Virus record (IMG/VR): IMGVR_UViG_3300042472_000628
Span: 1-37,454 of that record
Reading direction: 5' to 3' (one strand)
Origin: a virus
Lineage: Duplodnaviria; Heunggongvirae; Uroviricota; Caudoviricetes
Length of the DNA: 37,454 bases
Both the position numbers and the translations under genes were made by a program. Each line of letters opens with the position of its first letter. Within the stretch, counting starts at the first letter, position 1. The notes beneath the pieces were generated by a model, which saw only the letters and a program-made list of their open reading frames with translations, was not told the DNA's origin and ran no database searches. Positions 21,201-36,704 of this stretch are shown piece by piece.

Positions 21201-24200
21201 AACGTTTCAAGAATTCAAGAGATATTAAAAAATGCTGAAATAGTTAAAACGTTTGATCTATCGAAAAAATCAGATTTAGGTAAGTATATTAGAAATCATG
21301 TACAACAAGAAACTTTTCCAAAGGCGCCAATTACTGTTTCATTTGGTAAAAACGACATGACAAGTTTTAATGGTATTGACATTAAGTCTGGTGAATTAAC
21401 TAGTAAAGGTGAATACATTTACAAAGATTATGTTGAAGCTGACAAACCTCTTATTGAAGCCAATGATTTTATCACAGATGGTTTTAGAAGAAATGGTATG
21501 TTATGCGCTAACTTGTTAAACTTAGAGTTTTTATTTGACGATGAAAGTTCAAGTGACTATAGTGTTAACAGATACTTTGGATTATATGTTGATGCAATTG
21601 ATTCTGGAATAGGTGAAATAAATTCTATAGATAATAATATTATTAAGTTTAGTAATGTTACGTCTTACGTTGATGCTAATAATCCTATTACTGCAATCCC
21701 ATCACATAAACAAATGTCTACTTCGCCTACATTAGGTTACGTATCAATAAACGATATTTACTATAAGATTTCTAATTCAGGACTTTATGATCCTAAACAA
21801 TTGGAAGTTAAGATAGATGATACTACTGGAAATATACCGAGCGCGATTGGAATATCTCACACTGGAAGATCGGTTGATTTAATCAAGAATGATGAAAGAG
21901 GTTATGACTTTGTTAAAATGTCAATTATAGATGTTCCAGATAGCAGCGATGCAATTGCTGTTGTAAGTTCTAGAGAAGAATCTTATAAGTTTACATTTGT
22001 AAAACACACACCTGGAGAAACGATTAACATCAATATCGAGGATTCAACTGGACCATATCAATTTCAATTTACTACAGCTGCAAACTTTGGTTTAACAGCT
22101 TTAAATATGGCAAATGCTTGGTCTATTTTTGCATTAAAATCTGAATTGAGATTGGACATTGATGCGAATGCAAAAACATTTATTATAACTGAAATTAAAA
22201 CAAACTTGGGCGATCTTAATATGTATGTTTCTGGAGCCATTAGTTCTATTATACGAATTGATCAAATTCAAACAAACATAAATATTCAAAACAGAACATA
22301 TTCTGCTAATTATACTTTACCAAAAGGAACATACAGTGGAAAATTCTTTTCTAATCAAGGTAAATTAGGCGATATTGCTTCTGCTTTAGCAAGTGCTATA
22401 CATGCTGATGATAGTGCATTAGATGCATTCAGTATTGGACAGGATATTTGGATTAAAGCCAGAATTCCTGGTTATAAGTTATTGCAATATACAGTTTTGG
22501 TTAATAAATTAAATGTGATTGATTTTGTAAAAGTTAATAATAGAGATGTAGATAATATTCTAAAATTAAGAGATGGAGCTAGTACAGTATTATCTAAGTG
22601 GGATGCATATTATTTAACTGGTGGTAATTCTACTAGCAAATCTATCTTTATTAATAATACAACTATTAGTGAGATTTCTATAGGAGATTATTTAGAAACT
22701 AAATATACTAATCAATTTAATAGAGTGTTGGATATTGTTGAAGATATAACTGTTCCTAATTCTACTAGATCTAAATTAATAATGCAATCAAAGTCAGATA
22801 CACCCGATGGTGAAGCTAGAGTATTTAATGAAAACATAGTTAAAATTGGACTATTCTCAGCGTATGACATATATGACATGAATTTTGATTTTTACGATAC
22901 TTCTAATTCTGATCTAAAAGAATTAGATTATGAAACTAGAATTAAATTAAATTATGAGCCATATGAAAATGCTATAACAAAGATTGATCCCATTACTGGC
23001 GAATTTAATACTACATTGGAAGCTAATGATATATTTGATGATAGTTTTGCATTAGATCCTATAAACTATTTCTCAAACCTTTCTGAAATATTATCAGAAG
23101 AAACCGTAGGAGAAATAACCAGTCAGAATATTACAAGTGAATTTGATAGGTTAAAAGAAAATGAACTTAAAGAGTTTGCTATAAATTCAAGAGTGGTTCC
23201 TAATATTAACAAATGGGTTTTAAAAGATTCATTGACAGTAAGAGATCAACCTTATTACTTAAATACTAATGAGGCTTTTGGTAGAACTAATTTCTCACCA
23301 GATTTAAGTGCTACTAAACGTAATAGAAATGATATGACTCATGAATGGTTTTATATGGATAAAAAACCAAAGTATTTAAGATATGACGAATTAAATGATA
23401 CGTTTTCATATGTTAATTTTATTGAAGACTTTGAATTAACTGCTGATTTATTTAAGAGTACTAAGAACAATTATTTTGATAAGTTCATGATAACTGAAGG
23501 TTTTGAAAAGAACCTGGATGCAAATGATATAACGAGTATTTATGATAAGTTTGGTGAATTCACTAGAAGATATTTAAATCCAGATGATGTAAACAATACT
23601 TTCTTTAAAACAAATTTAAAGAAAAAATATACATTAATTGATGGTGGAGATACTAGTGCTTTTGCTAGTACTATATTTAAGGGATTAAAAGTTGTTCTTA
23701 AAAACAGAAAAGAATTTACAGAAAAAGTTGCATTAGACTTTGTACCTACAAGTGAATTTAATGGATACAAATTTAGTATTTTATTGAAGACTAATACTGA
23801 TGTGAAAACTAATAGTGTTGATTTTGAAGTAATTCAAAATAAGAAATTTAAATTTGTAATATTCTTTATTAACTTAAACATAAGTGATTATTGGATTAAG
23901 GGAAATATGAATAGAAAACTACTTTATGAATTAAACCATAAAATAGTATACGATCATACAATAGAAGATTATAATTATGCTAACACTTCTTTTAATGGTG
24001 CATTAAGTTGGAATACTGCTAATTTTACTGGAAGTACGCCATATGCGGTTGAAGGTATTAATCATTTTGATGGATCTGTTCCTAATTTTGAGAACGATAT
24101 TTTAATAGGTGAAAATGGATTATTTGGAGAAGTATTAATGGACATTTATCCAGAAACTCCTGGTAATACAATGTATAAGTTTTCAATTTATTCAATTCAA

Positions 24201-25649
24201 GATACTAACACTATGTTTGTTGTTTCAAAACCTGTTAATGTTAATGATCCAAATGATATATTAGATATTACATATTTGCCTAATTATATTCAGAAGAAAA
24301 TTAAGTATTATTACACAAACGGAGGTAGTAATATTCATAAAACGCTTTTAGAGAAAATATCTATAAATAGGGTTGCAGATATGATTAATTTAAATGATGA
24401 TAGTGTTACATATACTACCGTTGAAGAAGATGGAACTGTAAATAATAATAGATTTACTGTTAATTTTGATGATGGTAATGAAATAATTAAATACGCAAAC
24501 ATTTCTATCGAAGAAGATAATGATAAACCTAAAAGTTATAAATTATTTAAAGGTATTATTGGTTATAATCTTGTTAGATCTAATGAGGCTTTATACTATC
24601 CATTCTTAGTTAGACATAATGGTGCATACACTGTTGATTTTACACCAGTGATAACATTTACTGATATGTACACTCATTTTAAATCTAATAGAATTCAAGC
24701 AAGTGCAGATCAAAGAGAAACAGGATTAGAGTCTATATTATATAAGCACTCCTTAACTGACGGATATGAATTAACTACGGCTAAATCATATTATGAAAGA
24801 TATAATAGATGCGGTACTACGTTTAATGTAGGATTTATACAAGATGATGGCACACATGATAAATATTTCGGTGTTATTAAAAACCATTTTTATCATAAAG
24901 TTAATGAAATAAATCCAACAGGTATTACAAAGCTTTCAGAGTCATCTGATAAACTTCCATTGTACCCATTAATTGATGAAGTTGCTATATCAAAAAAAGA
25001 TGTAAACGTATTTAGATCTTCATGGGATGCTGGTTATTATACAAGAGCTTTTTCTGGTGGAAAATCAGAAGACATTCCTGGAACATTAGACAATACTGAA
25101 GAAAGATCTTATCTTGCATCTACAGTAATGAAGGTTAAAAATAATTACGATCTTATTTCGTTTAAATATCAAACTATTGGAAGCAAAGAAAAACTAGATG
25201 AAATACTAAGCAACTCTATAAATGATGCTGAAGTATTGGTGTTCGAAGATGAGAATGAAATCGTTGCTGATTTTTATATTACTGATATTACTACTAGATT
25301 GTTAAAAGAAGACGGAGTATTAACTGGAATTCAAAACTATGTAAGTGTTCAAAATTCAGCAGGTGATAAAACGACATTATCTGATGATGCTGATTTTTAT
25401 ATAAGTAAGAATATCATTGAGCAATTTGTAGTTGATTCTGTTAAATTATACACTAAAAGATTCAAAGGAGCTGCTTCAAGTATAGTTAGTTCTAACGATA
25501 TTAATTTAATAGGTGATGGAGGATTTTCCCCTGATAATAATTTCACTTATAAACCACATAAGCAAACGCCTATGAATTTTAGGTTGATATATAATAAAAG
25601 ATTAGGATATTCTTACGACATTAAACCTATGATAAAAATAAAGTCATAA
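18291..25649 (+). CDS. Giant virion protein (2452 aa): Cys-bracketed modules, Pro/Thr linker, two cadherin/Big_9-like Ig domains and a large C-terminal structural core
   Basis: Ig motifs PPTKGTL...GSDSFTFTVRDG and PIKGAI...GSDSWTIRATDSKGG; PT tract; probable core begins near LLRTNPKLSGNIK (~20775). Confidence 0.65.
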   Translation: MASISIKTTPYATSVLACTNGPASSGNLTLFYTSTALAIDVFLYTDFAQSLAFNGADKWYYIGDTSETIQIDINGKVTDIAACASPTATPVVPTATPAPSAIPPTPTPTSIPPTPTPTAIPPTATPIPPTPSPTPDSVPIAISAAYSVAWNGTLTITLTGLDDQTTNLFYTIVTPPTKGTLTRVGVAGSAIYSYVHTASTVGSDSFTFTVRDGFNQTSPSATITINPANAVPVIVNPGTINVTQNSFSNFNVSVTDSDGDAITLSTITSPIKGAITINGQTGNTISVKYTTLVGLTGSDSWTIRATDSKGGQSTQFTVLFNIIPTPRFTMDIGSFGNDPTSMCFSTPITLAYGSTSQANNVSELAIGDSIYYDESLTNKVIPPSSIINLVKVSDSYASVILGIDLSGEIISKTPCTITSTSSFTDVKYSTNSREYCSGDYSIVKLWYNGTVAKTLSELVDGNIPLFSSEYYSNLGATQLGQIDSGIYSDINSINTYYKRSTTDTWGASVPGLGLFEWQCGTLIPNETFELTSIYKTNLSDPTINQFCAGTSSSTSLFYVRQEGMQPFSGLLALAKSNTPIYKSSIGATTEDPDDLFESNIFEDSYGYLAWENIGDGVNFKWYGYDTNNLLVSGGDISAYGDCGDYIKPEIVTNEFDANGKIKNVFYGFYSCNPEIEGPQAGSNTETLFWPIYIIDGLHTDNDGDPGSYIEDFIDTIEFKNVISSSSFDSCLEYSFKIIAEDIDEAVALLESSGLDPQQRPVVSSGTQIGLGSEAVVQVYSDTKPCISNVTSLVLETYTFPLIADYETIKAGPNFKTQTNYQLDNVTKPLLRTNPKLSGNIKIVTSSNGSVYLESINASKELAAIKYKKNVVNPNGNYAADVANFFKNTGTPSDLIYLTKRSESDLTVLGSYDKQIEEEYQYGTTYNYSKNYDENYRIFAPIWVDNNMPDNFVIFKVKNPTGIDAATVSADNVSRIQEILKNAEIVKTFDLSKKSDLGKYIRNHVQQETFPKAPITVSFGKNDMTSFNGIDIKSGELTSKGEYIYKDYVEADKPLIEANDFITDGFRRNGMLCANLLNLEFLFDDESSSDYSVNRYFGLYVDAIDSGIGEINSIDNNIIKFSNVTSYVDANNPITAIPSHKQMSTSPTLGYVSINDIYYKISNSGLYDPKQLEVKIDDTTGNIPSAIGISHTGRSVDLIKNDERGYDFVKMSIIDVPDSSDAIAVVSSREESYKFTFVKHTPGETININIEDSTGPYQFQFTTAANFGLTALNMANAWSIFALKSELRLDIDANAKTFIITEIKTNLGDLNMYVSGAISSIIRIDQIQTNINIQNRTYSANYTLPKGTYSGKFFSNQGKLGDIASALASAIHADDSALDAFSIGQDIWIKARIPGYKLLQYTVLVNKLNVIDFVKVNNRDVDNILKLRDGASTVLSKWDAYYLTGGNSTSKSIFINNTTISEISIGDYLETKYTNQFNRVLDIVEDITVPNSTRSKLIMQSKSDTPDGEARVFNENIVKIGLFSAYDIYDMNFDFYDTSNSDLKELDYETRIKLNYEPYENAITKIDPITGEFNTTLEANDIFDDSFALDPINYFSNLSEILSEETVGEITSQNITSEFDRLKENELKEFAINSRVVPNINKWVLKDSLTVRDQPYYLNTNEAFGRTNFSPDLSATKRNRNDMTHEWFYMDKKPKYLRYDELNDTFSYVNFIEDFELTADLFKSTKNNYFDKFMITEGFEKNLDANDITSIYDKFGEFTRRYLNPDDVNNTFFKTNLKKKYTLIDGGDTSAFASTIFKGLKVVLKNRKEFTEKVALDFVPTSEFNGYKFSILLKTNTDVKTNSVDFEVIQNKKFKFVIFFINLNISDYWIKGNMNRKLLYELNHKIVYDHTIEDYNYANTSFNGALSWNTANFTGSTPYAVEGINHFDGSVPNFENDILIGENGLFGEVLMDIYPETPGNTMYKFSIYSIQDTNTMFVVSKPVNVNDPNDILDITYLPNYIQKKIKYYYTNGGSNIHKTLLEKISINRVADMINLNDDSVTYTTVEEDGTVNNNRFTVNFDDGNEIIKYANISIEEDNDKPKSYKLFKGIIGYNLVRSNEALYYPFLVRHNGAYTVDFTPVITFTDMYTHFKSNRIQASADQRETGLESILYKHSLTDGYELTTAKSYYERYNRCGTTFNVGFIQDDGTHDKYFGVIKNHFYHKVNEINPTGITKLSESSDKLPLYPLIDEVAISKKDVNVFRSSWDAGYYTRAFSGGKSEDIPGTLDNTEERSYLASTVMKVKNNYDLISFKYQTIGSKEKLDEILSNSINDAEVLVFEDENEIVADFYITDITTRLLKEDGVLTGIQNYVSVQNSAGDKTTLSDDADFYISKNIIEQFVVDSVKLYTKRFKGAASSIVSSNDINLIGDGGFSPDNNFTYKPHKQTPMNFRLIYNKRLGYSYDIKPMIKIKS
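18543..18695 (+). repeat. Pro/Thr-rich PTATP/PPTPTPT coding repeat
   Basis: SPTATPVVPTATPAPSAIPPTPTPTSIPPTPTPTAIPPTATPIPPTPSPTP. Confidence 0.9.
25586..25594 (+). promoter_or_regulatory. Possible internal late promoter GATATATAA for the collagen fibre gene
   Basis: Exact motif about 57 nt upstream of the ATG at 25651, inside the end of the giant gene. Confidence 0.35.
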
Positions 25650-25650
25650 A

Positions 25651-27312
25651 ATGGCAATTAACATTCAAGAGATATTACACCCAAGCGATTCGGACTCTAT
25701 AAAGTTTGAGAAAATCAATTATAACTTTGATCAAATTTTAGCGAATGGCGGTGGGCCAATTGGACCAAAGGGTCAAAAAGGTGATCAAGGTCTACAAGGA
25801 AGTACTGGTCAAAAAGGTCAAAAAGGTGAAACAGGACCTATTGGTTTAAAAGGTGTTTCCGGAGCTACTGATAGTCCATGGTACAAAGTTAATGTCGATA
25901 CAAATAATGATGGTCAAAATGAAGTTAGTATTTTAAAACCTAAAATTGGATCAGATTCAAATATGCCTATTATCTGGTTAGGTGATGATGCATTTCAAGA
26001 AGATGTAACAAATGGTGATATTTCTACTAATGCTAGATTATCAATTGCCAAAGATTCTACCTTTGAAAATTATATTAAATTATATCATGCTATCGATAAA
26101 GCACTAGTAATGACAAGTATTACTAGTACAACGACTGAGGGTATATTTTCTAAATTTAATTGGCAAAATGCATTTGGTAGTTCAAATATAGAATTTGGAG
26201 CTACTACAGATAAAATTACATTCTTTGCAAACAATTATTCATTTTCAGCTAGCGGTGTTGGAATCAATTTAAAGTCAATTGGTAATACAAATATCAAACT
26301 TAGTAGCACTGGTTTTGGAATTTTAGATGTAGACATGAATGCTGAATTTAAGGGTTATTTAAGATTGCCTGCTGGTACTACAGGTCAAAGACCTTCTGTA
26401 CCTCAATTAGGTATGATTAGATTTAATATTGATTTAGATATTGTTGAAGCTTATTATAATAATGGTGGAACTCCTGAGTGGAGAGAATTATGTACTGATT
26501 GTGGAACACCAGTCGGTGATAGTATCGGTATTTCAGGTGGAGATATAAATGCTAATGCTGATGGATCTCCAGCAACTGATACAATTGAAATTATTGGAGG
26601 TGATATTCATGCTAATGTCGATGGTTCACCATATTCTGCAGTAAGCGCAGCATTAAGTGCAGTTGGATCTACTTCACTTACAGCAACTTATAATATTCCA
26701 ACAACACTTTATTTAAATTATACAATTGCACCTACATCATCTGATCCAGGATCTTCTAACGTATTTGTTAATACTCCTGGATTAACTATCACTCCTGAAC
26801 CTTCTAGTAATAGAATAAAAGTTGTGACAAGTGTTGATGTTGTTGGTAAAACTTGGAACGTAACAGTTAAACATCCATTAGATTCGAATGTTATGGTAGT
26901 TTGGAATATATCATTAGTAAGTGCTGCATCACCAACTGCAACACCAGTTACACCAACTGCTACTCCAGTCCCAGCGCCTACTGCAACACCTAGTCCAGTC
27001 GCAACTGCAACAATAACTAATGTATTACATGTTGTTGATGATACAGTAAGTGTTGTTTTCAACTTAAGTGATACTGTTAATTGTTCGGCAGTTACAGTTC
27101 AATACAGTTCTAATCCAACTGGACCATGGAATGGTAATACATCAGGTTGTTCATCACCTCGTGCAGTTGAGATTTATGGTGCATGTGGAACCACATACTA
27201 CTTTAGAGTTGTTGAAACTAGAAGTGGTTTAACAGATGTTATATCTAATGTATATGAATTCACATATCCAGATTGTGACTATGGAGGTGGAGGAACAGGA
27301 TCTATTGTATAA
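25651..27312 (+). CDS. Tail fibre protein: gp9/gp10-like N-terminus, collagen triple helix, fibre repeat, Ig-like module, PT linker, FN3-like C-terminus
   Basis: KINYNFDQIL; 13 Gly-X-Y triplets; LPAGTTGQRP...GMIRFN...VEAY...W phage fibre motif; C-terminal VTVQYSSNPTGPW...CGTTYYFRV FN3-like. Confidence 0.75.
   Translation: MAINIQEILHPSDSDSIKFEKINYNFDQILANGGGPIGPKGQKGDQGLQGSTGQKGQKGETGPIGLKGVSGATDSPWYKVNVDTNNDGQNEVSILKPKIGSDSNMPIIWLGDDAFQEDVTNGDISTNARLSIAKDSTFENYIKLYHAIDKALVMTSITSTTTEGIFSKFNWQNAFGSSNIEFGATTDKITFFANNYSFSASGVGINLKSIGNTNIKLSSTGFGILDVDMNAEFKGYLRLPAGTTGQRPSVPQLGMIRFNIDLDIVEAYYNNGGTPEWRELCTDCGTPVGDSIGISGGDINANADGSPATDTIEIIGGDIHANVDGSPYSAVSAALSAVGSTSLTATYNIPTTLYLNYTIAPTSSDPGSSNVFVNTPGLTITPEPSSNRIKVVTSVDVVGKTWNVTVKHPLDSNVMVVWNISLVSAASPTATPVTPTATPVPAPTATPSPVATATITNVLHVVDDTVSVVFNLSDTVNCSAVTVQYSSNPTGPWNGNTSGCSSPRAVEIYGACGTTYYFRVVETRSGLTDVISNVYEFTYPDCDYGGGGTGSIV
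25753..25869 (+). repeat. Collagen-like (Gly-X-Y)13
   Basis: GPIGPKGQKGDQGLQGSTGQKGQKGETGPIGLKGVSGAT. Confidence 0.92.
26518..26631 (+). repeat. Tandem 18-aa duplication DSIGISGGDINANADGSP / DTIEIIGGDIHANVDGSP
   Basis: Visible in protein and DNA with a 60-nt period. Confidence 0.85.
26929..26997 (+). repeat. Pro/Thr-rich PTATP coding repeat
   Basis: SPTATPVTPTATPVPAPTATPSP. Confidence 0.85.
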
Positions 27313-27337
27313 AATTAAATATAAAATAATAAAATAA

Positions 27338-27907
27338 ATGGCAGCTAACGATTATACAAGAAGTGTGAGTATTACACCACAAAGTTCATCTTATTCATGG
27401 AGTACACCTCCAAGTTGGATCACTATAATACAATTTGGCGCTAGCAACGATTGGGTAATTACTATTGCTGCAAATACAGGTGCTTACAGAAGTGCAACTA
27501 TTTCTGTTACACATAGTAATGGAGTTACAACAGATAGTATAAATATTATCCAAGAAGGCGTTTCTTCTGGTGGTGGAGCAGGTATACCAACTGCAACTCC
27601 AATTGTACCAACTGCAACACCAGCTGCAACTAGTTCAGGTGGAGCAGGTATACCGACTGCTACTCCAATCCCAGCTCCGACTGCAACGCCACCTCCAACT
27701 AGTTCAGGTGGAGCAGGAATAACAGCATATACATATTCTGTTTTCGGTACTGATTTTTATAGTTTCGGTAACGTATCATATATCAATCAAGCCGGTGAAT
27801 ATAGATCATCGTCTGTTGGTTATAATCAAACTATTTCGATTTGTGCTAGGTCAATTATAAGTCAAAGTGGTTGTAATGTAACGAACACATATAGCATGTG
27901 TTTCTAA
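27338..27907 (+). CDS. BACON-domain protein with PT/Gly linker and small Cys-containing C-terminal domain
   Basis: W...PSWIT...ITIAANTGAYRSATISV...INIIQ is a BACON-type Ig signature; duplicated TSSGGAG/IPTATP units. Confidence 0.7.
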   Translation: MAANDYTRSVSITPQSSSYSWSTPPSWITIIQFGASNDWVITIAANTGAYRSATISVTHSNGVTTDSINIIQEGVSSGGGAGIPTATPIVPTATPAATSSGGAGIPTATPIPAPTATPPPTSSGGAGITAYTYSVFGTDFYSFGNVSYINQAGEYRSSSVGYNQTISICARSIISQSGCNVTNTYSMCF

Positions 27908-27921
27908 TCTAATAAAATTAG

Positions 27922-27929
27922 GATAAATA
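27922..27929 (+). promoter_or_regulatory. Putative late promoter GATAAATA
   Basis: Motif variant in the gap about 20 nt before the ATG at 27949. Confidence 0.45.
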
Positions 27930-27948
27930 TAAAAAGAAAATAATAACA

Positions 27949-29163
27949 ATGGCAGCTAACGATTACATAAGAACGGTAAATATCACACCATTGAGTACTA
28001 GTTACTCTTGGGATACACCACCGAGTTGGATCACTATTAATAGAATAGGTACATCTGATGATTGGACTATAACTATTGCCGCTAATAGTGGTATAGCTAG
28101 AAATGCTACGTTAACCGTTAGACATGCTAATACAACTACAGTTGATACAATTAATGTTTCTCAAAGTGCTGGAATTGTAGTACCAACTGCAACACCAATC
28201 GTACCAACTGCAACACCAATTCCACCGACACCAACACCAACTTCACCAGCAGGTGCAGGTTACTCTTTATCTTTTGTTGACTCTAGTTTTACTATAGATG
28301 ATTATACTTTTGGTGGAAATACTTATGTAGACTTAAATTATAATATTACTGGTGCTACAACTCCACCGACATTAGTACAAAAATCAGTATATCTGGATTG
28401 GACAAATCGTTCTGGACCAACTGGAGGTGTAGGTACAATTAGATTATATAGTTTATTACCGCCTGCAGAATTACCAGTTAGTATGCAAATGTTGCCTATT
28501 TTTACGCTTGCACATCCATTAGATAGTGGTGTAACTGCTTCTATTCCTGGTTATATAATTCAAGCACAAGATGAATTAATTATTAGAAATCCAGATCCAA
28601 CATCAGTTCCTAGTCCAACAACACCACCATCTACTGGCGGCGGTGGCGGCGGTGGCGGATGTTTAATTGGAGGAACTAAAATTACTTTATCTGATGGTTC
28701 ATTAATAAACATTGAAAATCTTAATGTTGGTCAAAAATTAATGGCGACTGTTTTTGGAAATATGCCAAACACTGATGATGTTACAACGTTAAAATCTTGG
28801 ACAGAAATTAATCCTTCTATATCAAGTACTGAATCTGAATTAGTTTCAATTAAAGCATATGAAGTTTCTAAAACTTATAATTTCAATAACGGTTTAATAG
28901 TATCTTCAGGAGATCATTTACATATAGTTAAAGTTAATGATTCAACATGGACTGTATTAGAGGCTGAAAATATTAAAATTGGTGACAAGTTCATGACAAT
29001 AAAAGGTGAAGTACTTATAGGAACAATAACAGAAGATCATAACATCACAACTGTTTACAAATTAGATGTTGAACCTAATGACACTTATATTGCTAACGGA
29101 GTGGTTACACATAACTTGAAAGATGAAACACTAAATCCAGTCGAGGATGTTAGACAACAATAA
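27949..29163 (+). CDS. BACON - PT linker - Ig-like - Gly8 - Hint (intein-like) domain protein
   Basis: N-terminus paralogous to the 27338 gene; Hint blocks CLIGGTKITLSDGSLINIENLNVGQ (A), SSGDH (B), VYKLDVEPNDTYIANG (F), VVTHN (G). Confidence 0.85.
   Translation: MAANDYIRTVNITPLSTSYSWDTPPSWITINRIGTSDDWTITIAANSGIARNATLTVRHANTTTVDTINVSQSAGIVVPTATPIVPTATPIPPTPTPTSPAGAGYSLSFVDSSFTIDDYTFGGNTYVDLNYNITGATTPPTLVQKSVYLDWTNRSGPTGGVGTIRLYSLLPPAELPVSMQMLPIFTLAHPLDSGVTASIPGYIIQAQDELIIRNPDPTSVPSPTTPPSTGGGGGGGGCLIGGTKITLSDGSLINIENLNVGQKLMATVFGNMPNTDDVTTLKSWTEINPSISSTESELVSIKAYEVSKTYNFNNGLIVSSGDHLHIVKVNDSTWTVLEAENIKIGDKFMTIKGEVLIGTITEDHNITTVYKLDVEPNDTYIANGVVTHNLKDETLNPVEDVRQQ
28660..29115 (+). other. Hint domain (Cys238-Asn389, 152 aa), no endonuclease, +1 residue is Leu
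   Basis: Cys1 directly follows Gly8 (28636-28659); ends His-Asn, then a 15-aa tail LKDETLNPVEDVRQQ. Confidence 0.88.
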
Positions 29164-29173
29164 ATTTAAATAA

Positions 29174-29986
29174 ATGGAAATTAAAAACAATTTAAAACAA
29201 TTTTTTTCAAATAAGAGTCTAGTTATTTTTGTAGCTGGTGCTCTTTTTGTTTTGTTGTTTTTAAGACAATGTAATCAGATAGATAATTTAAAAGCTAAAG
29301 TTGAGATGACTGAAAAGGATTCTCAAAGAAACTTTAATAATTATTTAGCTTCTAAAGATTCAGTAAGAATTGTGGTTGCTAAGAATGGTAATTTGATTAG
29401 TGAAAAAAGAAGTTATGAGTTTGATCTTAATGATTTAAAAGGAGATCAAAAAGAATTAATTGAAAAATACAAAGAAGCTTTAAATTTAAATAGAAACTTA
29501 AATAAAGTAAATACTTTATTAACAGCTGACTTAAAAATAAAAGACACATTTGTAGCAGGTACTAGTACTACTAAAATAGACTCGATAAATACTAAAATTA
29601 AGTTTAGTAAATTTGATGATTTTGGAAAAGGTAATTCTAGAGATCTTTCAGGGGAAATGCTAATCACGAAAAACGGTACAGATTTTAAATACAGTGATGC
29701 CACGTTCTCTATTAACCATAAGATTAATTTAATGGCTGCGATAGAAAATATTGATGGAGCTGATCAATTAAAAATTTCAACTTCTTACCCAGGTTTATCG
29801 TTTGACAATATAGAAAATATAAACCTAATTAATACTAAATTAAATCAAAAGCCTGTTAAAAAAGGTGGTTTTGCAATTGGTATTGGTTTAGGATATGGAA
29901 TAAATTTAAATAATAATCAAATAATAAGTACTGGTCCATCAATAGGTCTTGGACTTTACTACTCACCGAAGTGGTTAAGATTTTAA
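29174..29986 (+). CDS. Membrane-anchored spanin-like protein (N-terminal TM, coiled coil, C-terminal Gly/aromatic beta-hairpin)
   Basis: LVIFVAGALFVLLFLRQC TM; helical middle; KKGGFAIGIGLGYG...GPSIGLGLYYSPKWLRF, an architecture I associate with Bacteroidota phages. Confidence 0.5.
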   Translation: MEIKNNLKQFFSNKSLVIFVAGALFVLLFLRQCNQIDNLKAKVEMTEKDSQRNFNNYLASKDSVRIVVAKNGNLISEKRSYEFDLNDLKGDQKELIEKYKEALNLNRNLNKVNTLLTADLKIKDTFVAGTSTTKIDSINTKIKFSKFDDFGKGNSRDLSGEMLITKNGTDFKYSDATFSINHKINLMAAIENIDGADQLKISTSYPGLSFDNIENINLINTKLNQKPVKKGGFAIGIGLGYGINLNNNQIISTGPSIGLGLYYSPKWLRF

Positions 29987-29999
29987 AATAATATAAATA

Positions 30000-32063
30000 A
30001 TGGCACAATCATCAAGATATTTTTACTTAGACTCAGACATTTTATTAGAGTTTATTTACCACGATCAAAGTAATCCTTCTAAATATCAAATAGAGGTTGA
30101 TGAAAATGGTAGCGAGGTAAAATTCTTAGATACAATTAAGGGTGATCCTTTCAGTCAAAGACATTTGATTAGTGAGTTAGGTAGTGCTGTTGTAAACTTT
30201 GATGTTACAGAAACTAGTGGTTATTTGTCAGTTGAGAATTTTGCAGCTAGAACTCTTTTACTACAAAATGGTAAAACATATAAATTTAATTTAAGTGCAT
30301 TAACAAACCCTAGTTTATTTACTATAAGTGGTGCACTTGGAATTTATTCATATTCTAGCACTACTCAAATTGGTCAATTTACTCCTGTACAAAATGGTAC
30401 AGTTGATTATTCATATGAAGGTTTAAAAGGCGGAAAGATAATTGTTGACGCTAGAGCTAATCCTTTATTTGCAAATCCTGATGAAAATACAGGAAATGAT
30501 ATTAATCAAACTATCGGTAGATACCATGCAGTACAAACTGATTCTACTGCAACGAAATACGCTTTATTAGGATATGATTCTACTGGAGATTATGACATGC
30601 ATAATTATATTAATAATAATATAGATTGGGCTGGAGGAAATGAAACAGATCTTTTAAATTACCAAACTAATGCTACTGCTAATATTAATTTTATCAAGTA
30701 TGATAGTATTAGACTTCACTTAAGAAGTGGTTACAGTTTTTCTGCAAGAGGATATGAAGGATTTTTATTTCAAGTTGCTGCTAAAAGAACTGGAGGCGTA
30801 AGAAATTACTTAACACAATTAGTTTACTTAAACACTAGTAACTACGAATATTCAAATCCTAAACCATTTATTTTAGGAGAAACTTTATATAGTAAGTTTA
30901 TTGATATAAAAATACCTACACTAGTAAATCAAAACAGCGAGTTTGATGATTTATTTTATGGAGATGGTACATTAGGATCTAGTGATTTAAATCCTACTGC
31001 AAATTATGAACTTACATTTAAGTTAATAAATAATTTGGAAACTTTTAATGGTTATGATTATTTTACAACTAAAGAGGAAAATAAGTTTACTGTTTCGAGA
31101 GAAGATGAATTTCAAGATTTTACAGTAGTAGTTGAAGATGCAACAGACGGAGATTATTTTAGAATATATGGTGAAAAAGACAATTCAATTGGAGCATTCG
31201 AAGCTTATATTTTAAATCAAATTACAAAAACTTCTGATGATATTATTGTAATGTTTGACGTTGATGTTTTTGAAAGCATAGGAACCTCAGAAGTTAAAAC
31301 TTTCCAAACAACCTATACACAATACGAAGATTTTAATACGCCGATTGTTTTTAGACCTGTTATTATTAATAGTAACATAGCTTCTAGTTTCTCAATTGAT
31401 ATAACTATGAGAATATGGAATCAAACCGATAATACACAAATTGTAAAACGTGCAAGTTTGTCAATTGATCAAGCTGCTAAATATGGTAAAAGATTACAGA
31501 AACTTAAAATTGATTCACCAAATCAATTAACTGAAATTTATAATGTTCTACCACAAATGGCTTCAAATAAAATTGTTGCTGGTATATTTACTGATAATTT
31601 ACCAAGAAGCGTTAAATATGTACCTGCATTTGTAGAGAGACATAATGTAATTGCTACTAGTGCCACTGTTAGATTCGATACTAGTAATGAGAACATAATG
31701 ACACAGAATATTAATGAAGTTGATACCTCTAGTTTTAAAACAGAGGGCGAATTAGTTATTAAAGTTCCTCCATTTACATCTTATTACAAATTTGTTGTTG
31801 CTAAAAGAAAAGAAGACGATATAGAATTTATATCTTTTGCTAATACTGAAAATGTTGTAATGACATTTAGTGATGGAAATCAAAAGCTAAAATTCAATCA
31901 TGTTTCTAATAAAGACATTAATATGGGTGAAGGTGAATTACTATTTAAAATTAGTGAAGCTAATGCAAATACTATAAGAGGTATGAAAAACAATACATTT
32001 TATATTAGTGTTAATAATGGAATAGACGAAAACATGATTTTGTCTGGTAAATTTATGATTTAA
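30000..32063 (+). CDS. Hypothetical virion structural protein (687 aa)
   Basis: Long beta-rich acidic ORF in the late module; TATAAATA immediately upstream. Confidence 0.55.
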   Translation: MAQSSRYFYLDSDILLEFIYHDQSNPSKYQIEVDENGSEVKFLDTIKGDPFSQRHLISELGSAVVNFDVTETSGYLSVENFAARTLLLQNGKTYKFNLSALTNPSLFTISGALGIYSYSSTTQIGQFTPVQNGTVDYSYEGLKGGKIIVDARANPLFANPDENTGNDINQTIGRYHAVQTDSTATKYALLGYDSTGDYDMHNYINNNIDWAGGNETDLLNYQTNATANINFIKYDSIRLHLRSGYSFSARGYEGFLFQVAAKRTGGVRNYLTQLVYLNTSNYEYSNPKPFILGETLYSKFIDIKIPTLVNQNSEFDDLFYGDGTLGSSDLNPTANYELTFKLINNLETFNGYDYFTTKEENKFTVSREDEFQDFTVVVEDATDGDYFRIYGEKDNSIGAFEAYILNQITKTSDDIIVMFDVDVFESIGTSEVKTFQTTYTQYEDFNTPIVFRPVIINSNIASSFSIDITMRIWNQTDNTQIVKRASLSIDQAAKYGKRLQKLKIDSPNQLTEIYNVLPQMASNKIVAGIFTDNLPRSVKYVPAFVERHNVIATSATVRFDTSNENIMTQNINEVDTSSFKTEGELVIKVPPFTSYYKFVVAKRKEDDIEFISFANTENVVMTFSDGNQKLKFNHVSNKDINMGEGELLFKISEANANTIRGMKNNTFYISVNNGIDENMILSGKFMI

Positions 32064-32065
32064 TT

Positions 32066-32617
32066 ATGGTTCTTAATAGTAGAAATAATGCATTTGATTT
32101 TAGATTTCCAAGAGGATTTATACCTGCTGAAGTATCTGAAAAATATAAGAAGTATCTTAATAAGGTACCAGGTGGTTTATTATCAGAACCTGTTGATTTT
32201 GTAAATTACAGTATTCAAGGTATTAATATTCCTGGAATTTCATTTGAACCAGTTACACAAGAAGATAATGATGGAACTAAGAGATACCATCGAGGCGCAA
32301 TGCCAATTCAAAATACAATTAATAGAGAATTTACAGTAACCATGCAGTTATTAGATGGATTTATTAATTATTGGATTATGATGGATACTTTATTGTATTA
32401 TTATGCAAGGTCAACTAAACAAGCATATATTGATCCGTTAACTTTGAGAATACTTGATGCTGAAGGTGCATCTGTTGCATACATGGAATTTACTGATTGT
32501 ATTATGAATTCTATTAATGAATTAAGTTTGAATTTTGCAGAGAACGTTGCATCATTTAGTACATTTGAAGTTACGTTCTTCTATAATAAATTAAACCTTA
32601 GATTAGAGGTTGAATAA
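32066..32617 (+). CDS. gp3: Tail tube terminator / tail completion protein, gp3-like (tube-protein fold)
   Basis: VNYSIQGINIPGISF...EFTVTMQLLDGFINYW...FTDC...ELSLNF...FEVTFFY follows the gp3/gp19 pattern; 183 aa. Confidence 0.65.
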   Translation: MVLNSRNNAFDFRFPRGFIPAEVSEKYKKYLNKVPGGLLSEPVDFVNYSIQGINIPGISFEPVTQEDNDGTKRYHRGAMPIQNTINREFTVTMQLLDGFINYWIMMDTLLYYYARSTKQAYIDPLTLRILDAEGASVAYMEFTDCIMNSINELSLNFAENVASFSTFEVTFFYNKLNLRLEVE

Positions 32618-32623
32618 ATATCA

Positions 32624-32632
32624 GATATATAA
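32624..32632 (+). promoter_or_regulatory. Putative late promoter GATATATAA
   Basis: Exact motif 3 nt before the ATG at 32636. Confidence 0.5.
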
Positions 32633-32635
32633 CAT

Positions 32636-33004
32636 ATGAAAACATTTAATACTTACTTACTTGAAAACTCGGCTACTGAAAAAGAGTTACAACTTATCAA
32701 TGAGGGTTTACAACAAGAATGGACACCTGAATTAGAAGCTAAGATTGATGCAGCTTTAGAGTCATTTGCTCTAGAGTATCAAAAAGCTGATGGTACTTAT
32801 GATATTGAAAAACTTAATGAAGAGATTACTAATGAAGGTTTCTTTGGTTCTATTATCGGTGGTCTTACTGGATTTGCGTTAGGTAAATCAGTAGGTAAAA
32901 TGATAGCTAAGGTTTTAGGTATCGAAAAAGGTATTTTCTTTGACTTATTAACTTCAAGACTTGTTGGTGCTGCTTTAGGTGCTAGTCTTGGTAATAGAAT
33001 ATAA
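32636..33004 (+). CDS. Candidate internal head protein with acidic pro-region and C-terminal glycine-zipper hydrophobic helices
   Basis: MKTFNTYLLE resembles T4 capsid-targeting N-termini; (L/I/T)-x-E sites; GFFGSIIGGLTGFALG and GAALGASLG. Confidence 0.55.
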   Translation: MKTFNTYLLENSATEKELQLINEGLQQEWTPELEAKIDAALESFALEYQKADGTYDIEKLNEEITNEGFFGSIIGGLTGFALGKSVGKMIAKVLGIEKGIFFDLLTSRLVGAALGASLGNRI

Positions 33005-33655
33005 ATGAATTTTTTAGCAGTAGACTTTTCTTTGAATTCCCCTGGAATTTGCATATACAATGATAAGAGTAAGAAATATCATTTTATTAGTTACATGAAG
33101 CCTGGTACAGGCACTAAAGCAGAACAAAAACTTCAAGAAGAGTTATCTTTATTAAGTGATGTTACTCTTATTAATCAACCTGATTTTACAAATAACGAAA
33201 CTTTCTCAAGTGCAGAACTTCTTAAGGTTAAACGTTATGATAAAATGGCAGATGACATTATAAACCTTGTTTTACAAAATTCTTTTGATGGTGATGGGTT
33301 TACAATTGCATTTGAAGGAACTTCTTATGGTTCTAATGGTGGAACCAATAATATGATTGACATGGCGGCAGGTGCTGCAATCCTAAAACTAAAACTTTTG
33401 AAGACTCTTAATCCCGATGACATATTAACTGTGGCTCCAACTACTATTAAGAAGTTTGCTGGTAAGGGTAATATGAATAAGCTTCAATTGTTTGATTGCT
33501 TTCAACGAAACGTGAACGAAGACCCAATCTTGGCTAAAAGTCCTTTGTGGAAAATCGTTAAAGACCTTGAAGTTGGAAAGAAGATCCCGAAGCCTTTAGA
33601 TGACCTAGTTGATGCTTATTTTCTCGTTGCGTTCGTTGCAACCCCAAACACCTAA
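33005..33655 (+). CDS. ruvC: RuvC-like Holliday junction resolvase
   Basis: FLAVDFSLNSPG (Asp), IAFEGTSYGS (Glu), VAPTTIKKFAGKGNMNK, DDLVDAY (DxxDA). Confidence 0.85.
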   Translation: MNFLAVDFSLNSPGICIYNDKSKKYHFISYMKPGTGTKAEQKLQEELSLLSDVTLINQPDFTNNETFSSAELLKVKRYDKMADDIINLVLQNSFDGDGFTIAFEGTSYGSNGGTNNMIDMAAGAAILKLKLLKTLNPDDILTVAPTTIKKFAGKGNMNKLQLFDCFQRNVNEDPILAKSPLWKIVKDLEVGKKIPKPLDDLVDAYFLVAFVATPNT

Positions 33656-33680
33656 TCTTTCCTCTGGCGTAAAGACATAT

Positions 33681-33710
33681 TTTATATGCTAGTTGCGTAA
33701 AACTGTTTCA
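33681..33710 (-). promoter_or_regulatory. Putative promoter TGAAAC-N18-TATAAA on the minus strand (antisense to ruvC)
   Basis: Minus strand reads TGAAAC agttttacgcaactagca TATAAA; same two boxes as the plus-strand copies. Confidence 0.45.
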
Positions 33711-33743
33711 TTTTATTTGAAAAAAAATAAAAATAGTTCTCCA

Positions 33744-33771
33744 TGAAACAAAACTAAACTTAGATATATAA
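33744..33771 (+). promoter_or_regulatory. Putative promoter TGAAAC-N17-TATAA overlapping the late motif GATATATAA (33763-33771)
   Basis: Same boxes and spacing as 33995-34022. Confidence 0.55.
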
Positions 33772-33809
33772 TAAGTATACTATTAAAGTAGTAACATAAG
33801 GCAAAAGAA

Positions 33810-34007
33810 ATGGCACAATTAGTTACAATCGATTTCATCCGACTAAACACAATCCTATATAAGATGGTTGTAAATGGTCAACTCTCAAATGAAGAGCGTG
33901 AAGCATTACTACACAAGTCAGGGCTACTTAAGCTTACGGATACTTGTTGGATTGAAGACGAAAATTCTACATTAACATTTCCTTTTCCTGAAGTTGAAAC
34001 TTTTTAG
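33810..34007 (+). CDS. Hypothetical protein (65 aa)
   Basis: A-rich leader, downstream of a promoter motif, fills the gap before gp32. Confidence 0.6.
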   Translation: MAQLVTIDFIRLNTILYKMVVNGQLSNEEREALLHKSGLLKLTDTCWIEDENSTLTFPFPEVETF

Positions 34008-34022
34008 AGTATACGATTATAA
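33995..34022 (+). promoter_or_regulatory. Putative promoter TGAAAC-N17-TATAA for gp32
   Basis: TGAAAC 33995-34000 and TATAA 34018-34022. Confidence 0.55.
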
Positions 34023-34028
34023 GTATTA

Positions 34029-34066
34029 TAAACAATTTAATAATTTAAACAAACTAAACAATTTAA
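34029..34066 (+). repeat. 12-nt direct repeat TAAACAATTTAA x2 in the gp32 leader
   Basis: Copies at 34029-34040 and 34055-34066, with AATTTAAA between. Confidence 0.7.
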
Positions 34067-34070
34067 AGGT

Positions 34071-34985
34071 ATGAGTGATTCATTTGACATTTTTAACTTA
34101 GGTGTAGAAGACGTAGAAACACACCAAGTAACAACAAGTACTTCTTCAAACGAAGTGTACAAACCAACCGCAGACGATGGTAAAGATGGAACTTACAAAG
34201 CATTAGTGCGATTTGTTCCAAACCCTGAAAACCCTCGTAATTCCCTAATTCAAAAATATGTGCACTGGATGACAAATTCAAGTGGTGATGGTAAACTAGT
34301 TGATAGTCCATCTACTATTGGTGAAAAGTGTCCTATTGCAGATGTGTTTTGGAAACTACGTAAATCAGATTCAGCTGTTGACCGTAAGGCATCAGAGAAA
34401 TTGAAAAGACGTCAACAGTATTATGCTTTGATTAAGATCATTAAAGATCCACAAAACCCAGAATTAGAAGGACAATACAAAGTCTTCAAATTTGGTTACA
34501 AAATCAAAGAGAAAATAGACGCAGAATTGAAACCAGACTTTGGTGAACCAACACAAGTATTCGACCTTTTTGAAGGTAAGAACTTTGAATTGATCATTAC
34601 ACGTCAAGGTGACTTCAACAACTACGACAAATCTAAATTCTCAGCTAGTAAATCAGCTATCATTATGGGCGATGCACCTGCAGAACGTAATAAAGAGACG
34701 ATGACTACTATCAAAGCAGAATTAGACACAGCACCTTCATTAAAAAGTTACGATTATCAAGCATGGGACGAAGAAACTCGATCATTTGTAAATGATGTAT
34801 TGAGAATGTATTTAAACCCAGGTGATTCAATCGGTGAGATGACTTCAAGTGCTCCTAAGAAAGCTACTAAAAGCACAAGCTCTGTAGCTGAAATGGAAGC
34901 TCCAGCGAAAGCAAAAACAGAATCAACATCAAATGTATCAAATGACGATGACTTAGATTCTTTTTTGAATGACCTCGACATCTAA
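34071..34985 (+). CDS. gp32: Single-stranded DNA-binding protein, T4 gp32-like
   Basis: ALVRFVP, STIGEKCPI, IIKDPQNPELEGQYKVFKFGYKIKEKI, VFDLFEGKNF, NYDKSKF; acidic tail DDDLDSFLNDLDI. Confidence 0.93.
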   Translation: MSDSFDIFNLGVEDVETHQVTTSTSSNEVYKPTADDGKDGTYKALVRFVPNPENPRNSLIQKYVHWMTNSSGDGKLVDSPSTIGEKCPIADVFWKLRKSDSAVDRKASEKLKRRQQYYALIKIIKDPQNPELEGQYKVFKFGYKIKEKIDAELKPDFGEPTQVFDLFEGKNFELIITRQGDFNNYDKSKFSASKSAIIMGDAPAERNKETMTTIKAELDTAPSLKSYDYQAWDEETRSFVNDVLRMYLNPGDSIGEMTSSAPKKATKSTSSVAEMEAPAKAKTESTSNVSNDDDLDSFLNDLDI

Positions 34986-36045
34986 CATAAACCTATCTGA
35001 AGAGTTAAAGGATAAAATAAGATATTCACTTAAACAAGTAGTATCTCAAAAACATCCTGAACCTAATAAGAAACTACTTAAAGACATGCATGGGCGAATA
35101 ACCCTTGCATGTCCTTATTGTGGTGATTCTCATACCGATGATACCAAAAAAAGAGGTAACATTTTCTGGGATACACTACAATATCACTGTTATAATTGCA
35201 GCCATCACACTAATGTTTATACTTTTCTAAAAGATCACGAAGTAAAGATGGATAATTCAGATGACTCATTCGCAGTTATCGATTATATTCAACAAAACAA
35301 AATACAAGTTAATCCTGAATCAGTTCTAAAACATCAAGCTTTAGAAACTGTTCATAATCTTGCGATTGAGGTTGATGAGTTTAAGAAACATTTTAGGGCA
35401 AAACCAATAGTTCCAGGTGACTGGATTTGGTTTCAATTAAAAGCAAGACTTCTACATAATAGAATAGATGATTTTTTATATTCAGAGAAAGAACATCGTT
35501 TGTGGATTCTAAACTTTAGTACAGATGGTAAAATTATAGGAGCTCAGACTCGTAGAATGAAAGGATATGGTCAAAGATACTTAACGTATGATCTACCTAA
35601 ATTATATGAGGAAATGGGTAAACCGTTAGAAATGACCAATGAAGAGTTAAATGCACTTACAAAAATATCAACTTTGTTTGGTATTATGCAATTAAACTTT
35701 CAAAGAACAATCACATTATTCGAAGGACCATTAGATGCAAAGTTTATGAATAATTCATTAGCTCTTGCAACTGCAGGTAGATCAACAGATGATTTCGATG
35801 AGATACCAACTGTTAGATACATGTTCGATAATGATGCAACAGGTAAAAAGAAAATGGCTGAAAAACTTAAAAGAGGTAGATCCGTATTTATGTGGTCTAA
35901 ATTTCTTAAGGAAAATAAGCTGGATACATATAATATTAAAGATCTAAATGACTTAATATTGAAATGTTTTGAGCTTAAAATCGATGCTCATAAAAAGATC
36001 GATCAATATTTTACATCAAGTCAATTAGATTTATGGTACGTATAG
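34969..36045 (+). CDS. gp61: DNA primase, T4 gp61-like
   Basis: Zn finger CPYCGDS...HCYNC; TOPRIM motifs LFEGPLDAKF and MFDNDATG. Confidence 0.9.
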   Translation: MTSTSNINLSEELKDKIRYSLKQVVSQKHPEPNKKLLKDMHGRITLACPYCGDSHTDDTKKRGNIFWDTLQYHCYNCSHHTNVYTFLKDHEVKMDNSDDSFAVIDYIQQNKIQVNPESVLKHQALETVHNLAIEVDEFKKHFRAKPIVPGDWIWFQLKARLLHNRIDDFLYSEKEHRLWILNFSTDGKIIGAQTRRMKGYGQRYLTYDLPKLYEEMGKPLEMTNEELNALTKISTLFGIMQLNFQRTITLFEGPLDAKFMNNSLALATAGRSTDDFDEIPTVRYMFDNDATGKKKMAEKLKRGRSVFMWSKFLKENKLDTYNIKDLNDLILKCFELKIDAHKKIDQYFTSSQLDLWYV

Positions 36046-36254
36046 CAGATATTAGTAGTATGGTTGAAGATAATTTGGATGACTTTCAAAAAGACAGTGA
36101 TAGATTTAAAGGTATGAAACTCTTAATAGATTTCTCACCATTAGATCTTAGTGTCAATTCTCCAGATATTAAAATGCCAGAGCCTAAATTTAAAAAGAAA
36201 CAAGTTATTGCAAAATTTATTAAGCCTAATCCTAACAAAAAATCATTATTTTAA
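36033..36254 (+). CDS. Hypothetical protein (start may be the ATG at 36060)
   Basis: Fills the gap between primase and UvsY; acidic N-terminus, basic C-terminus. Confidence 0.5.
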   Translation: MVRIADISSMVEDNLDDFQKDSDRFKGMKLLIDFSPLDLSVNSPDIKMPEPKFKKKQVIAKFIKPNPNKKSLF

Positions 36255-36256
36255 AT

Positions 36257-36679: not shown

Positions 36680-36704
36680 CGGTAAACAAAAATGCTCTAA
36701 CAAT

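Follow-up and report, generated by a model that had tools for sequence, protein, structure and literature searches.

A putative phage surface protein precursor capped by a type-A bacterial intein-like domain with a conserved single-lysine tail

The window analysed here is the whole stretch of 37,454 nucleotides taken from IMG/VR record IMGVR_UViG_3300042472_000628, a phage of the class Caudoviricetes. The gene under study is the plus-strand open reading frame (ORF) 27949-29163, which encodes a protein of 404 residues with a C-terminal Hint domain (the Hint protein). Judged from its sequence, this domain is a type-A bacterial intein-like (BIL) domain, and the gene product is probably a phage surface or decoration protein made as a precursor that carries the Hint as a cap. 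Autoprocessing of some kind is very likely for this protein. We further consider it probable that the cap is a self-excising cassette, in which a thioester at Gly237-Cys238 would be resolved in cis either by Lys391, the only lysine in the short tail behind the Hint, or by water. Taken singly, the assignment of Lys391 as the nucleophile is tentative and falls a little short of an even chance, hydrolysis as the only fate of the thioester is rather unlikely, and transfer of the thioester to another molecule in trans is improbable. The Hint protein belongs to a large family of Gly-Hint-Lys caps that is apparently undescribed in the literature searched.

Domain architecture of the Hint protein

The gene and its product are composed as follows (window coordinates; the basis of each entry is given in brackets).

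27949-29163, plus strand: Hint protein precursor, 404 residues, about 43.0 kDa, an open ORF with a single cysteine at residue 238
27949-28173, plus strand: residues 1-75, constant BACON-like immunoglobulin (Ig)-like head (Pfam, relatives, beta strands in an AlphaFold2 (AF2) model)
28174-28254, plus strand: residues 76-102, Pro/Thr-rich linker, predicted disordered (predicted local distance difference test (pLDDT) below 50, sequence)
28255-28566, plus strand: residues 103-206, second all-beta Ig-like sandwich, the variable 'cargo' (all strands, pLDDT 75-90)
28567-28635, plus strand: residues 207-229, Pro/Thr/Ser linker (pLDDT below 50)
28636-28659, plus strand: Gly230-Gly237, encoded by GGC, GGT and GGA codons, positions -8 to -1 of the putative scissile bond (script)
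28660-29115, plus strand: residues 238-389, BIL-type Hint of 152 residues (profile, AF2 model, conserved residues)
28660-28662, plus strand: Cys238, block A, the sole cysteine of the protein (position script)
28906-28917, plus strand: S320-G-D-H323, block B (position script)
29110-29115, plus strand: His388-Asn389, the end of blocks F/G, which span residues 369-389 (position script)
29116-29160, plus strand: residues 390-404, acidic, disordered C-flanking tail of 15 residues with Leu390 at +1 (script, model)
29119-29121, plus strand: Lys391, the sole tail lysine, at +2 (position script)

In the AF2 model of the whole protein, three folded parts (the head up to residue 72, residues 103-206 and residues 238-389) are separated by disordered Pro/Thr linkers, and the tail is disordered from residue 393. 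No signal peptide was found in the 404-residue protein. The positions given for the Hint in an earlier reading of the sequence alone (the original prediction) were confirmed by script: Cys1, the SGDH motif, block F, the terminal His-Asn, Leu at +1, the 15-residue tail and the eight glycines are all in place, and there is no endonuclease. Lys391 at +2 had been overlooked.

The N-terminal part had been described as a 'BACON/Ig adhesin'. Its Ig-like character is borne out by the AF2 model. The BACON label is sub-threshold, the Pfam match (PF13004) scoring 19.2 bits (E 1.2e-3) against a gathering score of 25, and is suggested by relatives with the same head that have precomputed PF13004 matches. 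Among the N-terminal parts of the wider family, 11 of 82 match BACON, with a best E value of 3.2e-10. The term 'adhesin' is an inferred label that may apply. An analogy with ubiquitin-like proteins had also been drawn for this part of the protein; a ubiquitin-like fold was rejected, since the region is all-beta and forms two Ig-like sandwiches (AF2 model, Foldseek).

Assignment of the Hint to the type-A BIL domains

As a single sequence, the Hint gave five weak matches to Hint models in Pfam, at 13-16 bits and all under the cut-offs of 28-36, while 37 of 41 relatives matched Intein_splicing at E <= 0.01. The family lies outside current curated Pfam thresholds. Residues 236-390 are matched by PHROG 38766, a 'virion structural protein' (E 1.4e-7). 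We aligned 41 divergent relatives of the Hint and compared the resulting profile (A2) with solved structures. The best match was BIL2 (E 2e-16), followed by the BIL of C. thermocellum (1.6e-12) and the best true intein (7e-11), so that the margin of BILs over true inteins is modest. The AF2 model of residues 230-404, computed with the relatives' alignment, has a pLDDT of 91.2 and a predicted template modelling score (pTM) of 0.85. In the fold comparison BIL2 again came first (Z 19.8, root-mean-square deviation 1.8 Å over 137 residues), with mini-inteins at about 18, C. thermocellum BIL at 17.9 and Hedgehog at 17.3; 81 solved Hint chains reached Z >= 8, and the Foldseek E value was 7.5e-9. Structural Z scores of 17-20 do not discriminate between BILs, mini-inteins and Hedgehog, a point that weighs against a confident class assignment from the fold, and the assignment to the BILs therefore rests on the sequence profile and on features of the flanks.

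These features agree well with a type-A BIL. With 152 residues the domain has no space for an endonuclease and aligns end to end with mini-inteins and BILs; it ends in His388-Asn389, is followed by Leu390 at +1, is linked in the family to variable, non-housekeeping cargos, and its profile is nearer to BILs. A missing +1 nucleophile has been known as a hallmark of BILs since 2003, and type-A BIL domains are said to go back to Amitai in 2003 and Dassa in 2004. The domain type and its odd chemistry are already known. While the original prediction had treated the lack of a +1 nucleophile as an oddity, it is the very trait that defines BILs (PMC4031507). Type-A BILs keep the His-Asn pair and both cleave and splice; their flanks can be ligated via attack of an amine on the thioester, with cleavage products dominating (PMC4031507).

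Several other identities were considered and rejected. A canonical class 1 intein does not fit with Leu at +1 and a disordered C-flank of 15 residues; true inteins with Cys at +1 were met separately in the IMG/VR scan (L050, L056). Sterol transfer of the Hedgehog type does not fit with 15 low-pLDDT residues after the Hint and a median tail of 6 residues in the family. A pretoxin-HINT arrangement is contradicted by the stop codon 15 residues after Asn389, which leaves no toxin domain. The Pfam scan gave no Peptidase S74 match at E <= 1, and the C-terminal domain is the Hint.

The Hint could also be a silent domain, catalytically inactive and retained as a permanent structural or binding tip of the protein. 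Cys1, the block-B His and the His-Asn pair are invariant in the 41 divergent relatives, and their invariance across clusters of only 28-40% identity points to selection on catalysis, which makes this explanation highly improbable. Note that block B of the present protein has Ser in place of the usual Thr.

Conservation of the tail lysine and of the glycines

An exhaustive search of cluster representatives (50% identity) with residues 228-404 as the query matched 985 clusters at E <= 1e-3 and 219 at E <= 1e-10. We analysed 151 representatives, i.e., the matches listed and the query itself; the N-flank was scorable in 136. The Hint occupies the extreme C-terminus in 145 of the 151, with a tail of at most 45 residues (median 6). 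The His-Asn pair is kept in 150 of the 151, and Cys1 in 133 of the 136. At +1, Cys and Thr never occur among 145 representatives and Ser occurs in two.

At the sequence level, the tail lysine is the strongest conserved feature of the family. A lysine is found in 183 of 187 distinct tails (1-41 residues), and exactly one in 166 of them, whereas length-matched C-termini taken from the remaining ORFs of these phage loci contain a lysine in 109 ± 6.5 of 187 cases (maximum 129 in 1000 resamplings), all these numbers being tallies of distinct tails and clusters and not of independent evolutionary events. The lysine resides at +1 in 23 tails and, as in the case of Lys391, at +2 in 103; in the remainder it is found at +3 to +15, mostly in acidic tails. 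The shortest tails consist of 'K' or 'xK'. Since the tail including Lys391 lies outside the confident fold of the model, conservation of the lysine for packing is unlikely; confidence in the tail is low in the AF2 model of residues 230-404, with pLDDT blocks of 63 and then 45.

The glycines behave differently from what had been proposed. The original prediction made poly-Gly the key feature and called for a survey of poly-Gly-Hint architectures. In that survey the C-terminal position of the Hint stood, but poly-Gly turned up in about half of the relatives: at least three glycines are present within the eight residues before Cys1 in only 68 of 136 representatives, and Gly occupies -1 in 60 of 136. 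Poly-Gly thus appears to be common in the family and is not defining. Among 21 close relatives it is nearly invariant, with G235 and G237 strictly so.

The N-terminal part of the Hint protein contains a single lysine in 237 residues. By comparison, lysine makes up 6.6% of the Hint and 2-11% of other proteins of the window. N-terminal parts across the family have a median lysine content of 1.7%, falling to 0% over their last 60 residues. Competing amines may be avoided in this way, or the low content may simply follow from a fibre-like composition rich in Thr, Ser, Pro and Gly. The tails, in turn, often end in a hydrophobic residue and Arg in the BACON-headed subfamily (ETVR, GGIR, NIIR, EIMR; tails of P0004-P0013, P0038, P0182, P0184, P0217 and P0223), regardless of Hint subtype. 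The 15-residue tail of the Hint protein holds an E-D-V-R motif (EDVR-QQ) that it has in common with tail ends of relatives. A Hint-less homologue, P0219, terminates in GNGGMR and resembles in this respect the tail ends of Hint-bearing relatives. The tail of the BACON-headed subfamily may have a role of its own.

Proposed mechanism and its alternatives

The catalytic set of the Hint is complete, with Cys238 and His323 for thioester formation and His388-Asn389 for Asn cyclisation, and there is no classical +1 acceptor. Because a complete Hint of this kind cannot splice via Cys, Ser or Thr, thioester chemistry at the Gly-Cys junction is to be expected, and to this extent the original view of a non-canonical Hint holds. 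In the mechanism that we propose, Cys238 of the folded precursor would attack the carbonyl of Gly237 in an N-S acyl shift aided by His323, giving a glycyl thioester; poly-Gly would provide an unhindered and flexible -1 flank for this step. The epsilon-amine of Lys391 would then attack the thioester in cis, with hydrolysis as the competing outcome. Finally, cyclisation of Asn389 would release the Hint (computed mass 16.6 kDa). The mature product would be the N-terminal part ending in eight glycines, either free (24.7 kDa) or joined to the 15-residue tail (1.8 kDa; 26.4 kDa together). For other type-A BILs a route has been proposed in which cleavage comes first and an alpha-amine attacks afterwards. 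Attack by the side-chain amine before cleavage is favoured here, because tails consisting of nothing but one lysine still have the His-Asn pair in front of them, and a lysine set free beforehand would diffuse away.

The original prediction placed the acceptor outside the protein, on a lysine or N-terminus of the virion or on a small molecule. The invariant His-Asn pair and the near-universal single lysine in the tail point instead to an acceptor in cis. In a conjugation in trans, the thioester would be passed to a lysine or N-terminus of the virion, to an amine on the host surface or to a small molecule, without E1 or E2 enzymes. There is a precedent in BIL2, which is reported to attach its N-flank not only to its own C-flank but also to other proteins (PMC8616854); a flexible, Gly-rich -1 flank is frequent in the family, the cargos are surface-exposed domains, and lysine-poor N-terminal parts would limit self-reaction, though composition may explain them. 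What makes trans conjugation a long shot is that the proteins offer no candidate acceptor or recognition region, the tail being disordered and only 1-41 residues long, that a built-in lysine and an invariant Asn would be superfluous for an outside acceptor, and that the precursor is cytoplasmic, where thiols and water compete.

A second alternative is maturation by cleavage only. The Hint would then be a transient cap, serving as an aid in folding, solubility or assembly or as a block to premature binding, much like the S74 intramolecular chaperone of tail spikes, that is lost by hydrolysis or thiolysis. A free 237-residue protein ending in poly-Gly would be released, as the original prediction had suggested in its fallback, and the tail with its lysine would serve the Hint and not the product. 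Tails of one or two residues are hardly useful ligation partners, cleavage products dominate in the type-A BILs studied (PMC4031507), orthologues always retain the Hint even with a swapped subtype, and the Hint sits on fibre, collagen-like and decoration proteins, a class that uses removable C-terminal chaperones. On the other hand, cleavage at the N-terminal junction needs neither a terminal Asn nor a lysine, as seen for Hedgehog and type-B BILs, which lack the Asn, yet His-Asn and the tail lysine are kept almost without exception in the present family (150 of 151 representatives and 183 of 187 tails). Furthermore, Hints are not known as oligomerisation chaperones. We regard cleavage as the sole event as unlikely, if a serious contender.

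Resolution of the thioester in cis, with Lys391 as the candidate nucleophile, has to face several objections in addition to the indifference of the fold scores. Processing has been observed for no family member; virion proteomics mapping termini was not found in the literature, and nothing usable was found for Dickeya phage AD1. The lysine could instead aid Asn cyclisation, docking, or recognition by a protease or partner, and its position at +1 or +2 may in part be inherited together with the end of the domain. Nor is a lysine among acidic residues obviously a good nucleophile. In the type-A BILs studied, cleavage products outweigh ligation (PMC4031507). No obvious benefit would come from joining so few residues to the product where the tail has only one or two. 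Candidate reasons for keeping the cap are a transient aid in folding or assembly, the making of a particular C-terminus, or a self-removing hitch-hiker.

Exchange of the Hint cassette among orthologues

A search with the N-terminal part yielded about 90 metagenomic proteins with the same BACON-like head. The second domain (residues 103-206) is restricted to the closest orthologues, and every full-length match retaining both N-terminal domains carries a Hint. The Hint itself varies. In P0182, the N-terminal part through poly-Gly is closely similar (about 80% identity, counted from the alignment), and the Hint is of a different subtype (C-H-I-A-G ... V-H-N), about 28% identical and with the lysine at +8. 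At the orthologous syntenic locus of another relative, P0183 (L064:6001-7710) carries both Hint subtypes in tandem. The reverse is found in P0014, where a Hint with 60% identity is attached to an unrelated N-terminal part with a weak VWA-like Pfam match. Because the Hint is always kept while its subtype and cargo are swapped, the architecture is under selection and the cassette is exchangeable at the Gly junction.

In P0183, a K-GDGTGGTGGG linker joins the two Hints, so that both have glycines in front and a flank with a lysine behind. The head also occurs in proteins that have no Hint, namely P0219 and P0252-P0260, the latter with tails that are acidic and rich in Gly. These proteins were rejected as evidence for an 'empty site', since their middle domain is not the same and the alignment at the junction, being of low complexity, is unconvincing. 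P0230 is apparently a truncated copy.

Such exchange would also be expected of a mobile hitch-hiker, a BIL cassette that spreads by recombination at the Gly-rich linkers of rapidly evolving fibre genes and excises cleanly, without benefit to the phage. This explanation addresses why the cassette exists and is compatible with the chemistry proposed for Lys391 or hydrolysis. One type of Hint occurs on cargos that are unrelated to each other, one cargo can carry different Hints, copies occur in tandem, the neighbouring fibre without a Hint ends in poly-Gly and a short tail as a possible empty site, and the conserved residues are exactly those for clean removal. However, there is no homing endonuclease, and one stop mutation among the Gly codons would be enough to delete a useless cap, whereas full-length two-domain matches all keep the Hint; nor do ends of one or two residues make the cassette 'addictive'. 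We therefore judge a pure hitch-hiker to be unlikely.

Tandem arrays of two to four Hints joined by HN-K-(G)n-C or HN-K-x-C were also seen in viral contigs and bacterial proteins (L024, L025, L027, L032, L037, L038 and L042; P0031, P0032, P0037 and P0159), and some of the bacterial tandem-Hint proteins have a Tim44-like C-terminal region. In three IMG/VR loci (L040, L043, L049), the Hint lies between long poly-Gly runs (G10-14 and then Cys; His-Asn and then GGGGKGGGGGG); behind it come a hydrophobic, membrane-like segment and some 150 more residues. Here the BIL is internal and not terminal.

Comparison with the closest known systems

The closest known counterpart is BIL2 from the Tetrahymena thermophila BUBL1 polyubiquitin-like locus (PDB 6TMM, 6Y75; Chiarini et al. 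2021, via PMC8616854). BIL2 is reported to transfer its N-flank to lysine amines without E1, E2 or ATP, forming an isopeptide between a lysine epsilon-amine and a C-terminus, with its C-flank and also other proteins as recipients (PMC8616854). Like the phage Hint, BIL2 has Gly before Cys1 and a terminal His-Asn and lacks Cys, Ser or Thr at +1; its C-flank likewise holds a lysine, which is the reported acceptor of the N-flank. The two share only about 20% identity and occur in a ciliate and a phage, respectively. The flanks of BIL2 are ubiquitin-like (Ubl) on the N-terminal side and a whole Ubl on the C-terminal side, while those of the phage Hint are an Ig-like N-part and 15 disordered residues; zinc dependence has been described for BIL2. 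On the N-terminal side, the Hint protein shares with a BUBL-type unit only the Gly run before Cys1, but not the beta-grasp Ubl N-flank with Gly-Gly.

Type-A BILs such as that of C. thermocellum (PDB 2LWY) resemble the phage Hint in mini-intein size, Cys1, a TxxH-type block B, His-Asn, the lack of a +1 nucleophile and of an endonuclease, and an association with variable surface or secreted proteins. The BILs described in PMC4031507 process both flanks, whereas the Hint of the phage family resides at the extreme C-terminus with a median tail of six residues and a single lysine. Neither the extreme C-terminal site nor the near-universal tail lysine was found described for known BILs. Hedgehog/Hog proteins also consist of a cargo, a Gly-Cys junction and a C-terminal Hint, and have the thioester as the first step. 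They differ in having a sterol- or adduct-recognition region after the Hint and no terminal His-Asn; the phage family is the opposite on both counts. Pretoxin-HINT (PF07591) shows weak Pfam similarity to the phage Hint (E 0.001-0.02) and likewise does not splice and occurs in secreted and surface proteins, but it precedes a C-terminal toxin that it releases, in contrast to the 15-residue tail after the phage Hint. The Peptidase S74 chaperones of spikes and fibres, which are self-removing C-terminal domains, offer a functional analogy only: fold and chemistry are unrelated, with a Ser-Lys dyad and trimer-dependent cleavage.

Carriers and significance of the family

The N-terminal parts of the representatives range from 50 to over 1400 residues and include fn3, BACON, viral BACON, collagen, VWA, PASTA, PKD and Calx-beta domains, with further matches to PHROGs of the tail-fibre, major-tail, tail-collar and Hoc-like kinds. 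In the ESM Atlas, most of the nearest named clusters are assigned to 'Viruses, Uroviricota', and most bear the label hypothetical; database labels of members read only 'Hint domain containing' or hypothetical. The IMG/VR scan yielded 58 loci. The cultured carriers comprise Erwinia phage Yoloswag, Dickeya phage AD1 with about 35 related Erwinia jumbo phages, and phage NCTB; the SNUABM jumbo phages are also carriers. In Yoloswag the Hint belongs to gp103, a 'virion structural protein' of collagen-like type with the junction G327-C328 and the tail TDIVAQAEKT. In the protein of phage NCTB, six glycines precede Cys1.

The best matches in cellular genomes were found on Flavobacterium chromosomes (L066-L073). 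These proteins of 290-410 residues are devoid of signal peptides, end in THN-IK-P.. or THN-YK-.. and may be prophage fibre genes. As they fit the G+C content of the window (31%), they hint at a host among the Bacteroidota/Flavobacteriia. A nucleotide search of the phage collection with window positions 20000-37454 gave no match and no close cultured relative.

Literature on Hint or BIL domains in phages, tail fibres and virions covered only ordinary inteins in terminase, polymerase or ribonucleotide reductase, and nothing was found on C-terminal Hints of structural proteins in the literature searched. Systematic C-terminal capping of phage surface proteins by a BIL, a conserved single lysine in a minimal tail and the swapping of Hint subtypes at the Gly junction all appear to be undescribed there. 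Lysine-directed transfer was found in that literature for a single ciliate locus only.

BIL domains have been known for twenty years, and their biological purpose is unclear. With the window we have a clear-cut member of a very large family that escapes the thresholds of curated models. The family follows one pattern: the Hint is the last domain of a surface protein, and conservation covers the Cys that would form the thioester, the Asn that would cyclise and a lysine shortly after it. A vague question about non-splicing Hints can thereby be turned into a sharp and cheap test on a lysine, and cultured carriers exist. If the lysine is the nucleophile, phages would supply a compact, cofactor-free isopeptide ligase of 150 residues that is of interest for protein engineering, and the mature ends of many fibre and decoration proteins would be explained. 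If the lysine has no such role, the family would still represent a new and abundant self-cleaving maturation module that is missed or called 'hypothetical' in annotation. In a bolder and decidedly speculative form, for which we see perhaps one chance in three, the Gly-Hint-Lys cap would be a natural and widespread ligation device in which a lysine epsilon-amine replaces Cys, Ser or Thr; about a thousand families, mostly of phage surface proteins, would be matured by isopeptide 'splicing' that needs neither enzyme nor ATP, and the thioester could be diverted to lock proteins covalently onto virion or host surfaces. Splicing driven by lysine would then be widespread among phages and no longer a peculiarity of one ciliate.

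Genomic neighbourhood

The record from which the window is taken comprises 165 kb and is estimated to be 61% complete. Two genes lie upstream of the Hint gene as follows.

25651-27312, plus strand: collagen-like tail fibre ending in Cys-x-x-GGGG and five further residues (TGSIV), no Hint (Pfam, PHROG)
27338-27907, plus strand: paralogue of 189 residues with the same BACON-like head, without Hint and without lysine (Pfam, comparison with relatives)

The first 72 or so residues of the 189-residue paralogue are common with the Hint gene, and its BACON match scores 21.8 bits. It is absent from the syntenic loci L062-L065 and looks like a recent duplication or insertion in the phage of the window. 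Synteny is otherwise rigid in the relatives: a giant protein, the collagen-like fibre, the Hint gene and proteins of 270 and 687 residues are followed by tail tube, a 122-residue protein, RuvC, gp32 and primase. Because of this synteny and the baseplate wedge and adaptor genes upstream, the Hint gene is assigned to the tail module, of myovirus type, of a jumbo phage.

Fibres of relatives (L062:3859-5946; L064:4295-5956) end in GGGG-LPS or in GGGGGGG plus a Ser/Gly tail of 14 residues. The combination of poly-Gly and a short tail at the end of the fibre may represent an 'empty' Hint site or a general feature of fibre ends in this lineage. It was considered whether a Hint accounts for the 142-residue difference between the fibre of 553 residues and a relative's fibre of 695 residues; this was rejected, as the difference is another domain. 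PHROG matches in the window correspond to a baseplate wedge (7084-8913), a head-tail adaptor (5847-6689), a tail tube (32066-32617), a RuvC-like resolvase (33005-33655) and a primase (34969-36045). In the relatives gp32 adjoins the primase. The layout of these genes as a whole is T4-like.

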